Shown here: positions 4,661 to 32,094 of the stretch, in pieces
How positions within the stretch are numbered: position 1 is the first letter of the stretch
Layout of the letters: each line of letters begins with the position of its first letter
DNA from: Eledone cirrhosa
Taxonomy: Eukaryota
Length of the DNA stretch: 64,000 bases
Reading direction: 5' to 3'
NCBI GenBank assembly: GCA_964016885.1
Contig: OZ024747.1
Location: 41,106,001 to 41,170,000 of the forward strand
Position numbers and translations under genes: made by a program
The notes under the pieces: generated by a model
Told to the model about the DNA's origin: nothing
Database searches by the model: none
Seen by the model: the letters and a program-made list of their open reading frames with translations, nothing else

Positions 4661-6502
4661 ATAACTGTGAGAAGGGGCTCACGTTGAAGGGCTAGCCTAG
4701 GATATTAAATACCCAAGACGGGATAGGTTCTGCCTATGTCACTACGGCGCCTCAACGATTCCATCAGGGGTTCTGGGCTCGTACATAAATACAAAATATT
4801 TAGGTACTAAACAAAATATACAAACGCATCTAGTCCGGTCCCTACAGTTTTTCTCTTCTCCATAAAAACCATTGCCTTGAAAATGTAGACAGTATTGATA
4901 ACAGCAATCTCTGTCGGAATTCGGTCAAGATATAGTAGCAATGCTACAAAATTAGTCAATATTACATGTTGTACGAAATGAGTCATTGTTAGATGTTATA
5001 CTGATTTCTAACCTAGGCAGACGCATTCTAGATAAGACGGCGGCAAATGGGAATAGTAACGGAGTGCGAGAACTTAATATTCCATACTAATCCAGAAACA
5101 AAATAGTGAGATATCTATTTATAGTTCTGAAAATTATACATGATATGAAAGAAAACCATTTTATCAATGGTCGTTTTCTTTCTTTTCTCTCTCTACTAAG
5201 TGGGAACAAATTATGCGTAAGCATATGAATTCTTAATCAAGGATTGGTTATATGTAGTTTTGCGATTGGTTTGTAGATCAGTTGTTGTTATTGCTGTGTC
5301 TAAACTTCTGTGAAGTATCCGCTTTTTTAGATCATTACTAGCGTGGGTTAAATATAACTGGGTGAGATTAATCCAGGAAAGGCAATAACTGGAAATCAAA
5401 CATAAAAAGGAAGAAAACTTCAGTCATATGTAGATATGTAGAACTAAGGAAGATAAACACTGAAATGGTGAGTGAGAACGAAACAGCATTATGTGAATAT
5501 TGATGAAGTGATTCTAGTCTGCGGCTCAGCTGGCTCCGACTGACAGTACCTAAAATAGCTACTTATCCAGGAATACGGACTTTGAAACAATAGGTTAGTT
5601 TCGCTATGTGCTGGGAAGGGTGGATTGGTGGAGCCCGAGGTTAGTAATCTTATCACCATTAATCAAAATTGCTGTACTCTTGGGGGATTGCCACAAAGAG
5701 AATACCAACTTCCCTTCACTACGAAAAACAACTTCTTTTTCCTATACTTTTACCTGTTAGATATATTAAAAAACCTTACTTTCGAGTATATATACATATA
5801 ATTATATGTATATTACGATTTATTTCTTTACTAGTGTTTATAGATTGCTTATTTTATGTTTTGATTCATTTTAGTTTAAATATTATTTATTTCATGAATA
5901 GTGGGTTTGGAGATCTTCGATAGTTTAGGTCTGTTGTTACTGCTTACTTTATTTCGATGTCGGGTGGAGTTACGGGAGAAGTGAGAAGTAATTTCATATC
6001 TATATCTATATTTTTCTATCTACCGACATACATATATATATATATATATATATATATATATATATATATATATATATATATATATATATATATATATATA
6101 CATCTACATATATATATATATATATATATATATATATATATATATATATATACATATACATATATATATATATATATATATATATACATATATATATATA
6201 TTTAGATACATATATATATATATATATATATATATATATTTAATACAATAACAGAGATAGCTTAACGCTAAACTCAGACTGGTAACCATCTCACTCAACA
6301 AACATTAGGTTATATGTTAGTATAATCCAATTTAAGTGTTTGGGGTGCTAACTATATGTATTTTGTGGAAAGCCAGTTGTATTATTTTATGAGATATAAT
6401 TAAAGTTAAAATATATCTCTCTTTCCAAACAATTGTTTCATTATAAGTTTTCTACAAATTGGGAGAATGTTTCCAGTTTATGTAGAAGCCGATATATATA
6501 TA

Positions 6503-6549
6503 TTTCCTGATGATTTCCTTCGAATGAAACGGTTCTAGTCCTGTAGAAG
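6503..6549 (+). ncRNA. putative type I hammerhead ribozyme
   Basis: UUUC-CUGAUGA-U(UUC cuuc GAA)U-GAAA-CGG uucuagu CC(U)GUA-GAAG. Core intact, stems short. Confidence 0.55.
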
Positions 6550-7590
6550 CCATTTTTATATTAAACATTATATACTCTATGTATTGAGTACCTTACTTAC
6601 TGTGGTTAGTTTATGTAGAAGCCTAAATATATTCATGTAAGAATATATTTAGGTGGGCACTTATAAATCTTCAGTGGAAGCCCATTAAACTTTGATATAA
6701 GAAAAAATTCTTACCGCAGTTAAAAATCGTGTCTGCTAAGCTGCTCCTTCACGCATCGAATGACCGCCAAATTTGAAATTCCAGCAGTCTTTTGACTGAG
6801 GAAGTTTCATAGCGTCACGAAGCGGGAAAGGGAGACAACCACGATACACGAGGACAAAAAAAAATAATATACACTCGGGTTAATTAGTTTTTTCAAAACA
6901 TTATCAATCCAACGTGTTAAGAACTCAATTGAAATTAAAAAAATAAATGTATGCGTGTATTAATTACACACTCATATAGATATTTTCTTAGGCTAAAAAC
7001 AGAGGTGATACCAAAATAACAAACCGCATCACATCACCGCAGCAAATACTGAAGGTTACGCTTTAAAGGCGATTGGGAATGTAAATCTCTGGCCAAATTA
7101 AGAGTAAAATATTTAATACACGCGGGTTAATTAGTTATTTAAAACTATTATCAATTCCAGGTGTTAAGAACTCAATTAATTTAAAAAAATAAATGTATGC
7201 ATGTAATTATTTACACACGCATATATATATTTTCTTAGGCTAAAAACAGAGAAGTGACAACCAAAAAAACCTCCATATCTCACAACAGTAACAAATACAG
7301 AAAGTCATGTTTATAAGGTACCTGGAAATAAGTACCTCTGGCCAAATCAAGAGTAACATATTTAATACAATAACAGAGATAGCTTAACATTAGGTTATAT
7401 GTTAGTATAACCAATTTAAGTGTTTGGGGTGCTAACTATATGTATTTTGTGGAAAGCCAGTTGTATTATTTTATGAGATATAATTAAAGTTAAAATATAT
7501 CTCTCTTTCCAAACGATTGTTTCATTATAAGTTTTCTACAAATTGGGAGAATGTTTCCAGTTTATGTAGAAGCCGATATATATATATATA

Positions 7591-7637
7591 TTTCCTGATG
7601 ATTTCCTTCGAATGAAACGGTTCTAGTCCTGTAGAAG
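7591..7637 (+). ncRNA. putative type I hammerhead ribozyme (copy of 6503-6549)
   Basis: Identical motif in the second direct repeat. Confidence 0.55.
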
Positions 7638-7877
7638 CCATTTTTATATTAAACATTATATACTCTATGTATTGAGTACCTTACTTACTGTGGTTACCCT
7701 CGATTGAACCCGGGATACATACTTATATATATATTAAAGGAAATAAACTTCGTTTAGGGACACAACACTATGGTAAATGACGTGCGTCTACATGTGAGAA
7801 TACAGATACCTAAATATGGAATGTTACGCGATTACCCCCCCCCCCCCCCCACACACACACACACACACACACACACA

Positions 7878-8048
7878 GCCCCGGCGGACAGGATGGAGAA
7901 GGCGTTCCCCCGGAGGATGGCTAAGGAGACGCGCTGGAAAAGCCACACCAACTCGCGGGGTTCACACCTGCGGCTGGCCAGCTCAGCGCCTATGGTGGTA
8001 GGTAGGGAGGTAGCCCTAGGGCCGAGGACACCAGAAGTCTCCACTGCC
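7878..8048 (-). mobile_element. CRE-clade non-LTR retrotransposon RLE C-terminal fragment
   Basis: AVETSGVLGP...WLFQRVSLAILRGNAFSIL. The 3' end abuts (CA)n. Confidence 0.8.
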
Positions 8049-29977: not shown

Positions 29978-29984
29978 CCACCAA

Positions 29985-30510
29985 ACATTCTCCTCCTCCC
30001 TATGTCTATCACACAAAACTCCCTTTTAAACCCCCTCTCTGTATCTACTAAAACCAAACTCTACCCCTCTCTATATCTAAGACTAATACACTCTCACTCT
30101 CTATAAATATTACACTTATCATTCCCAATACCCCTCTCTATATTAATTTACACCCCCCCCCCTCTCTATATCTTCTACACGGTACTCTCTTCCATTCCGA
30201 CTCTATCATTTAGCACCAAACTCTCCCCCTCTCTATATCTACTACACGGAACACTCTTGAAATTCCTCTCTTTATATCAATAAACATCAATCTCTCCCCG
30301 CTCTCTATATCTAATATCTAACACACTCTCCCAACCTTCCTCTCTATATGAATTACCACCTAACTCACCCCGCTCTCTATATCTAATATCTAACACACTC
30401 TCCCAACCTTCCTCTCTATATGAATTACCACCTAACTCACCCCCCCCCCTCCCTATATCTAATATCTAACACACTCTCCCAACCTTCCTCTCTATATGAA
30501 TTACCACCTA
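29985..30510. repeat. C/T-rich minisatellite, including ~70-bp unit x3 (30297-30510)
   Basis: Repeated ctctctatatctaatatctaacacactctcccaaccttcc... Confidence 0.85.
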
Positions 30511-31061
30511 CTACTGTCGCGGGTGGGACCAATCCGGTTGACCACCGAGAACACTGTCACGATCAAACCGCCTCCCCCTTTCAAAAACGAAGGAGAGGCG
30601 GTTTTCCTCTGTGTGATAGCTATGGCGAAAGAAGTTGTATGGTGGACAAGGTTGAAAGGGCTGAGGTCAGACACCTTTCTCTCCGGCCAACAACTGGTCT
30701 TTTTTTTCAAGTACCACTTTAGAAGAAGGATCAGAATGGAGAGAGAGGTGCTCTACCCCAGCAAGTTTTATGAAAGGTGGGTGAAAGTAGCGAGAATGGC
30801 CCGAGTGAATGGGCCTTCTCTCTATATCAGCCTGTATGTGAGAGAGGAAGGAAGCACCCGCTCTTTGTGCTCCTGAAGAGGAGGGTTGCACATTTTTTCG
30901 GGCGTGCGTGCGACCCATGTCAATGCCCCTCCCTATTGAGGACATCGATTGTTAAATTTAATTTGTTATATGTTTTTTACACGTCTTTTTAAATGTATGT
31001 AAACTCCCCCCTTTGTATTTGTCCCAATCTTTGATGCCCTGGTGGCAAATAAATAGAAATT
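30511..31061 (+). mobile_element. Tx1 family A 3' fragment with 18-bp target-site duplication
   Basis: ORF2 end ..RWVKVARMARVNGPSLY. TSD tatat(g/c)aattaccaccta at 30493-30510 and 31062-31079. Confidence 0.9.
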
Positions 31062-31808
31062 TATATCAATTACCACCTAACTCTCCCCCTCTCTATATCT
31101 ATATCTATCTCTCCCATCTGTTTCTACATAAATTGTAGCTCATATACAAACAGATGTGTGTTTTGGAAGTTTGGGGAGAAAAAATATAATTATTGGGGGT
31201 AGGGGCTTGGCCTCCCTGCCCCTCCACTAATTCCACCGCCCCTGATGTATATATAAATGTGTGTGTGTGTGTGTGTGTGTGTGTGTGTGTGTGTGTGTGT
31301 GTGTGTGTGTGTGTGTGGGCGTGCGTATATATAGATCCCGATGAGCTGGTCTGAGAATATTATCATTTAATCTGGCGAAACATATATTGATCAATTAAAT
31401 GTACAATTACCAGCTCTGTGAATTATATAACAATGCAGTGAGTAGACTGTAAGCATTGTATCAACTCCAGATGCTCTACATCCTTCGCACCACAGATTAT
31501 CGACTCGCTTTCAGCTTAAACATCACTTTGCCAAACGTACAGTTGTTTCCTCAACTTGTCAGAACATATATATATATATATATATATATATATATATATA
31601 TATATATAAGGGGAGGGTCATATTGTTATACTATTGCCAGAAATAATAATAGAACACACTCACTGTTTGGTTTAGATTGGTTTTCGCTTCTGTATCTTTT
31701 ATATCTCCATAGTTAATTTATTTGGCAATCAATGTTTATCATTGATTGAACAACGGTTAAAAATACTGATATATATATATATATATATATATATATATAT
31801 ATATATAT

Positions 31809-31858
31809 AGTCTATCAAACTTCTTTCGTCACACATCTGTGACATCATCAGCGGCACT
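31809..31858 (-). ncRNA. degenerate hammerhead downstream of Penelope-like ORF
   Basis: CUGAUGA-U-GUCACA gaug UGUGAC-GAAA is intact; stems I and III are decayed. Confidence 0.55.
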
Positions 31859-32094
31859 ATTATGTTTCCTTCCGTTGTATTGTAATGTCTACGCCATTTT
31901 GATTTAATTAATTTATTTATTTATTCTTGTCTCTGTTTGCGCATGTCTTTGTGTGTGTATTTTCTGTTTGGTGTGTATTTGTATTCTATCTTTGTTCACT
32001 AGTGTGTGTTTATGTGTGTTTGTTGTTATTGTACTTGTGTATGTTTATTTATTTACCTTAGGTCAGTATTATGGGTTTGGGTATGGTTGTTGTT

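Follow-up and report, generated by a model that had tools for sequence, protein, structure and literature searches.

Penelope-type hammerhead ribozyme motifs and their carrier elements in a 64-kb stretch of the Eledone cirrhosa genome

A 64-kb stretch of the Eledone cirrhosa genome (hereafter the window; C7:41106001-41170000 of the 3.0 Gb assembly) was analyzed for hammerhead ribozymes and for the elements that carry them. The region most probably consists of about nine insertions of Penelope-like elements (PLEs) into (TA)n, with hammerheads in their terminal repeats. Under this reading, autonomous elements have left truncated ends in some insertions. Two families, named F3 and F4, have no open reading frame (ORF) and were likely mobilized by a PLE.

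Hammerhead motifs of the window

Type I hammerheads were searched with a descriptor comprising CUGANGA, stem II, GAAA, stem III, NUH and a stem I of at least 4 bp. The descriptor returned 11 motifs among the 39 CUGANGA cores of the window, spanning 6503-29158, and none downstream of 31860. These were the same 11 hammerheads, at the same positions, that an earlier note had listed. In 100 block-wise dinucleotide shuffles of 6236-31860, the mean was 0.02 motifs and the maximum was 1. Two degenerate motifs reported in that note were also confirmed. The core at 31338(+) reads CCGAUGA, and at 31851(-) the core and stem II are present with one additional nucleotide following A9.

All 11 motifs have the CUGANGA/GAAA/NUH core and three stems in type I order. 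On their sequence they are assigned to the type I hammerheads of Penelope type, so the identity proposed earlier was upheld. Three motifs lie in autonomous PLE ends, four in retrozyme units and four in elements for which no partner was found, together making about seven insertions (Table 1). Ten motifs do occur in pairs by position, as had been claimed. Only three of these pairs are single inverted insertions; the motifs at 26143 and 29081, 97% and 88% identical to one reference monomer, are two separate ones. The proposed check with Rfam covariance models did not bear the motifs out: the scan returned 116 matches at E up to 10, none of them a hammerhead, and no hammerhead match at gathering score.

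Table 1. Hammerhead-bearing and Penelope-like features of the window (UTR, untranslated region).
Feature	Position (strand)	Description	Hammerhead and other details
F1 copy 1	6503..6608 (+)	short, 5'-truncated just ahead of the core	6503-6549, core 6507, GUA site at 6545
F1 copy 2	7591..7722 (+)	complete 3' end	7591-7637
F2a	13201..14916 (-)	3' end of an autonomous Hydra-type PLE	13364-13425, core 13417, AUA site at 13372; last ~20 endonuclease codons at 14856-14915, then 1.5 kb 3' UTR
F2b inverted arm	17059..17607 (-)	long end (+145)	17196-17261, core 17253
F2b main arm	17627..19332 (+)	3' UTR, short end (+57)	19218-19283, core 19226
F2c	25441..26030	head-to-head inverted pair, Hydra-like motif	25490-25569 (-), 25806-25883 (+)
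F3 copy a	26040..26298 (+)	truncated monomer of a 483-nt tandem unit	26138-26221, core 26143 canonical, GUA site at 26216
Neptune-like GIY-YIG endonuclease fragment	27770..27970 (-)	separate insertion	
F4	28096..28863	inverted insertion of a ~420-nt tandem unit	28309-28351 (-), core 28345; 28550-28592 (+), core 28556
F3 copy b	28875..29235 (+)	diverged subfamily (88%)	29077-29158, core 29081, stem II broken
F5	31326..31477 (+)	hammerhead family, old and decayed	core CCGAUGA at 31338
F6	31812..32981 (-)	Neptune-like PLE, 3' part; terminal hammerhead decayed, carrying one extra nucleotide	core 31851

Carrier families and their integration

The integration pattern was compared among F2b, F3 and F4. 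The 3' ends fell at two fixed distances downstream of the cleavage site in each family: +57 and +145 in F2b (23 of 24 ends), +81 and +190 in F3 (21 of 22), and about +220 and +277 in F4 (30 of 35). In the families examined, both 3' ends ran into (TA)n via a short UA-rich match. Inverted pairs of F4 with both ends at fixed sites had one long and one short arm in six of six cases, with three more having one broken arm; in the window insertion the short end is on the minus arm and the long end on the plus arm. F3 pairs displayed a long and a short arm in seven of eight readable cases, and two more were unreadable. A partial tandem of the pseudo-long terminal repeat (pLTR), an inverted 5'-truncated arm, a tail at one end and a (TA)n target were found in F2b, F3 and F4 alike. 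Such long and short arms are the PLE tail, and F3 and F4 carry the Penelope integration signature. The same two-site pattern was described for an anole PLE in vitro, which has two internal initiation sites (PMC11167929). Insertions stop elsewhere than at the cleavage site, and arrays continue across it; the template was therefore either a circle or an uncleaved multimer, between which the sequence alone does not distinguish.

The F2b main arm keeps the last 56 codons of a Hydra-clade ORF (17627-17794), which are 100% identical to locus L111. L111 consists of an inverted arm, a pLTR with a hammerhead, a 736-amino-acid ORF, a 1.4 kb 3' UTR and a second pLTR. The motifs of its translation were read by eye against the clade definition given in PMC8557442 (Craig et al. 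2021). Like the Hydra-clade PLEs described there, it has a C-terminal GIY-YIG, DKT, a CxCX5C linker, CxxC and CxH, and no CCHH. Targeting of (TA)n, a type I hammerhead near the 3' end, the inverted 5'-truncated arm and the tail at one end are likewise shared. In contrast to that description, RWR stands in place of RWK, the pLTR is clear, the 3' UTR of the families here is about 1.4-1.5 kb long and the unit is about 3.9 kb rather than <3 kb. In the atlas neighbours of the L111 ORF, some of the members bear GIY-YIG and RVT_1. A Pfam scan gave no reverse transcriptase (RT) or GIY-YIG match, and the PLE ORF was recognized neither by Pfam nor by PDB sequence searches, so its identity rests on the motifs, the atlas neighbours and the published clade definition.

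Copy searches scored the best 40 of 674-2562 candidates each. The 132 scored copies of the F2b family were all at least 95% identical over the N-terminal 297 amino acids, and by our count about 50 of them have an open frame of at least 738 amino acids. These values indicate that the family is young and very numerous. The best named protein relatives came from Argonauta hians. F2b is a truncated, inverted copy of an autonomous Hydra-clade element, and F2a is assigned likewise by homology; among F2a relatives, RT or endonuclease was found directly upstream in three of seven extended loci (L261, L262, L265). Thus, the earlier description of the set as non-autonomous ribozyme elements holds for F3 and F4 (4 of 11 motifs) and was wrong for three motifs, which belong to 5'-truncated autonomous Hydra-clade ends with endonuclease codons still in the window. 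The suggestion that the elements are uncatalogued in this lineage stands at the family level only. A Hydra element with a hammerhead, Hydra-1_Obim of Octopus bimaculoides, is reported in PMC8557442, and the hammerhead sequence here differs from it. For F2c, neither tandem units nor an upstream ORF were detected among 20 loci and six extended loci.

F3 and F4 were ORF-less. The F3 element mapped onto a 483-484-nt monomer in 25 of 25 loci, with one unrelated endonuclease match outside the element. F4 forms an array of about 17 kb on C28 (44443000-44460000; L116, L117), with about 40 units and 31 exact motif matches, and another on C1 with 10 in tandem and 1 inverted. By structure, both families are classed as non-LTR retrozymes, as ORF-less tandem units, at least two consecutive, with one type I hammerhead each. 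Both could instead be pLTR fragments of autonomous PLEs that escaped the search. F2a, F2b and F6 also seemed ORF-less in the window and proved to be autonomous ends, and the scoring of the best candidates only leaves room for such elements. We consider this improbable for F3 and F4, given the monomer-to-monomer junctions without an ORF, the roughly 40 units of the one F4 array, the uniform monomer mapping of F3, and the longest Met ORF in a trimer, which is 49 amino acids in F3 and 60 amino acids in F4. In its behaviour, the C28 array resembles a ribozyme-bearing satellite.

The motifs at 26143 and 29081 were also considered as the two pLTRs of the GIY-YIG fragment at 27.8 kb. This was rejected, because the two motifs lie on the opposite strand, share 88% identity and each possess a +81 end of their own, and because the fragment is missing from F3 loci elsewhere. 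The GIY-YIG remnants noted earlier at 27.8 and 32.1-33 kb are both genuine and Neptune-like. Each is a nested insertion in its own right, and neither is the partner of F3 or F4.

F6 retains coding remains at 32100-32981, namely a broken RT thumb, a partly decayed linker and GIY-YIG. In four of the five extended loci, the F6 hammerhead lies at the end of a Neptune-like element. Relatives of the 27.8 kb fragment have a CX4CxxC linker and a YVGQT motif. Both pieces were assigned to Neptune-like elements by the CX2-5CxxC linker before the C-terminal GIY-YIG. Minimal hammerheads, with no helix III and an extra nucleotide, were seen downstream of Neptune-like endonucleases at L317:2360, L321:3115 (oriented), L241:902 and L256:9097. 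The window copy at 27.8 kb has lost a recognizable minimal hammerhead. For F5, a partner ORF was looked for and not found.

Both F1 copies are nested in a different tandem repeat of about 1 kb (~990 bp), at 6236-6501 and 6608-7590. At its other loci the host repeat is free of F1, which makes a single local duplication or chimera the likely source of the F1 pair. Neither tandem units nor an upstream ORF of F1 were detected among 20 loci. The ~990-bp repeat, which also occurs at L059-L063 and L065, matches F1 over 10 nt at the cleavage site and the strand of stem I; a possible decayed hammerhead lies on the minus strand of the repeat. The 5' ends of F1 cluster within some 10 nt upstream of the CUGA core, where they are frequently joined to an inverted copy in head-to-head orientation (6503 and 7591 in the window; L043, L055, L056, L068, L070, L146, L201, L207 and L256). 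A short hairpin just upstream may favour fold-back priming.

Conservation of the fold and the proposed mechanism

Stem pairing was examined in 14 F2-type sequences. Two came from the window. The other 12 were drawn from 18 matches that a flanking anchor, not pairing, had picked out in 800 kb of DNA, both unselected and neighbouring; the six remaining matches were excluded because of truncation, rearrangement or internal duplication. Pairing was 100% in stems I and III and 80% in stem II. Double-sided changes occupied 22 cells compared to 9.1 in shuffles, and slid-structure controls paired at 38-54% compared to 90% for the true structure. In a wider set of 19 sequences, partly chosen by pairing, 8 of 15 pairs covaried. 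The core columns of this set were invariant or nearly so and the upstream flank was not.

The A15.1-U16.1 segment was fully self-complementary in 34 of 40 unselected motifs, in many different sequences, and in 7 of the 11 window motifs; the descriptor itself enforces just the two outer pairs. A self-complementary stem III is given as a hallmark of dimer-type animal hammerheads in PMC4209133 (Cervera and de la Pena 2014). The core and the palindromic stem III were kept across subfamilies in which stem II and the flanks had diverged, which implies selection on the hammerhead fold.

In minimum free energy folding, a complete three-way junction formed for the motif at 26143 alone, with 9 of the 11 motifs folded and the other two being near-identical copies. 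The five F2 motifs were without stem III as monomers or misfolded, and the motifs at 6507 and 29081 misfolded. Folded as dimers, the sequences paired via stem II and not via stem III, which neither backs nor excludes the dimer model.

The following mechanism is proposed. Cleavage of tandem transcripts would occur at the NUH sites, for the most part in dimers formed via the palindromic stem III and in F3 possibly in monomers. Unit-length RNA may then be ligated into circles by a host ligase, as for the mussel and axolotl retrozymes of PMC7229834 (Cervera and de la Pena 2020). Both strands of (TA)n would be nicked by the GIY-YIG domain. Reverse transcription, initiated at two internal UA-rich sites that lie downstream of the cleavage site, would cross the cleavage junctions. 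Such two-site initiation with read-through would lead to partial tandems and multimers and would make one arm long and the other short. The weakest steps of this mechanism are cleavage and circle formation.

Several points weigh against the PLE reading with its ribozyme steps. An anole PLE inserts in vitro without hammerhead cleavage and no RNA-seq reads end at the site (PMC11167929); therefore, uncleaved linear multimers could be the template. In the report on Xenopus retrozymes (10.64898/2026.07.22.740005, Li et al. 2026), 1 of 9 dimers cleaved in vitro. The canonical G10.1-C11.1 pair is missing from 10 of the 11 motifs, being present at 26143 only, and several window copies misfold; the remaining motifs have U.U (five, like axolotl HHR_Amex2 at the stem II base in PMC7229834), A-U (two), A.C (two) or G.U (one). 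Of five covariation measures in the set of 14, two did not exceed shuffles (83/500 and 389/500), and the sequences compared are related to one another. The end counts were taken from top-scoring copies, and overlapping loci may count one insertion twice. Furthermore, F3 and F4 had no homology to the pLTRs of the eight autonomous loci tested.

The hammerheads might therefore be passengers, where uncleaved linear multimers are copied, arrays grow by unequal crossover and no circular RNA arises. We regard this as rather unlikely. It would agree with the hammerhead mutants that had no effect on anole PLE insertion in vitro (PMC11167929), with the DNA-level array growth proposed by Li et al. 2026, and with the C28 array units, which are just 92-96% identical to the window F4 copy, yet idle motifs would not account for the selection on the fold described above. 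Mussel and axolotl retrozymes of the same build also accumulate as circles (PMC7229834).

Density, neighbouring repeats and relation to known elements

The earlier note had described the motifs as a hammerhead island. The genome was sampled in sixty 10-kb stretches at round coordinates, blind to content (600 kb in total). This sample held 40 motifs in 18 of the 60 stretches, compared to 0-3 in shuffles. Extrapolation gave 1.9e5 motifs genome-wide (bootstrap 1.0-2.9e5); under a stricter descriptor 19 of the 40 stayed, or about 0.9e5 genome-wide. All counts cover descriptor hammerheads, with minimal and extra-nucleotide variants outside. The 200 kb flanking the window held 28 motifs, and a non-overlapping 25.6-kb stretch 60-85 kb further on held 10. 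Thus, the island was not upheld; motifs are spread over the genome, and the region is one dense patch among them.

The local density was about 6-fold that of the sample (4.3 compared to 0.67 per 10 kb), and resampling of independent 10-kb stretches gave P = 0.0004 for at least 11 motifs in 25.6 kb. An island selected by the host for a function of its own would predict such an excess. We consider it very improbable, as the 11 motifs come from about seven insertions of mixed orientation, several copies are decayed, a comparable patch lies nearby, the boundaries were set after the fact, and motif counts follow (TA)n runs (rho 0.47). The density of (TA)n as the full cause of the local excess was rejected, with 17.6 runs per 10 kb compared to 16.6 in the genome sample. 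Scarcity of (TA)n (3.4 runs per 10 kb) explains the motif-empty second half of the window. Paired arms, (TA)n nesting and after-the-fact boundaries account for much of the local excess.

Two further tandem hammerhead families were observed. One has a period of about 311 nt, an ACGCGU palindrome and inverted arrays (L245:5950-7900, L230:4400-5520). The other has a period of about 561 nt (L234:8262-9731, L235:292) and lies in a second dense patch about 70 kb away. A non-LTR retrotransposon that has RT and, at its C terminus, a restriction-like endonuclease is also present in the window, in three copies of ~95% identity (21570-24840, 50190-53580 and 60370-63770). Many fragments of one element lie in (GATA)n runs (9150-13130, 30510-31060, 43084-43322 and 53934-54172); we take this element to be L1/Tx1-like.

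Hammerheads of PLEs (PMC4209133), retrozymes of molluscs (PMC7229834) and a PLE origin of retrozymes (Li et al. 2026) have already been published. As in the metazoan retrozymes of the latter two reports, F3 and F4 are ORF-less, head to tail, with one type I hammerhead per unit, a GC content of about 36% and a short palindromic helix III. Their monomers of 483 and 420 nt are slightly longer than the 170-400 nt of PMC7229834 and within the 51-972 bp of Li et al. 2026. The mussel and axolotl retrozymes accumulate as circles (PMC7229834); F3 and F4 are described here from DNA. The available text of both reports maps no PLE-type dual 3' ends or inversions on retrozymes and mentions no cephalopod. 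Most motifs here differ from the minimal hammerheads of PLE pLTRs (PMC4209133) in retaining a small helix III and in having no G10.1-C11.1. The estimate of about 1e5 motifs greatly exceeds the 2,000-9,000 minimal hammerheads per genome in that report, which were obtained with different descriptors.

A search on hammerheads in octopus and other cephalopods, with subscription journals and the supplements of PMC4209133, PMC7229834 and 10.64898/2026.07.22.740005 largely outside its scope, found no paper that describes retrozymes of cephalopods or counts their hammerheads. The term 'ribozyme' occurs 0 times in the searchable text of a 2026 repeat paper on Octopus vulgaris. The axolotl has 126,247 motifs (PMC7229834) in 28.21 Gb (Li et al. 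2026), or about 4.5 per Mb; the estimated load here is 32-64 per Mb, with descriptors that differ between the two.

The locus itself is ordinary and its class is known. The added value lies in the genome-wide load and in the PLE signature on ORF-less units. The mobilizer of retrozymes was left open in PMC7229834 as either LINEs (long interspersed nuclear elements) or PLEs, and Li et al. 2026 argued for the PLE link from co-occurrence and pLTR homology in vertebrates. The Penelope signature on F3 and F4 provides structural evidence for this link. It is possible, as a tentative combination that we hold below even chances, that E. cirrhosa has among the densest animal hammerhead loads (about 1e5-3e5, one per ~15 kb) and that the young F3 and F4 families are circular-RNA passengers of a still-active PLE RT-endonuclease, most likely that of the Hydra-clade family, of which dozens of ORFs are intact. 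If true, the two fixed 3' ends together with the inversions would prove directly, at the genomic level, that PLEs integrate animal retrozymes, and would offer a ready enzyme-template pair for circle-templated target-primed reverse transcription. A role in RNA processing in this lineage is conceivable, should some of the motifs cleave within transcripts of the host.

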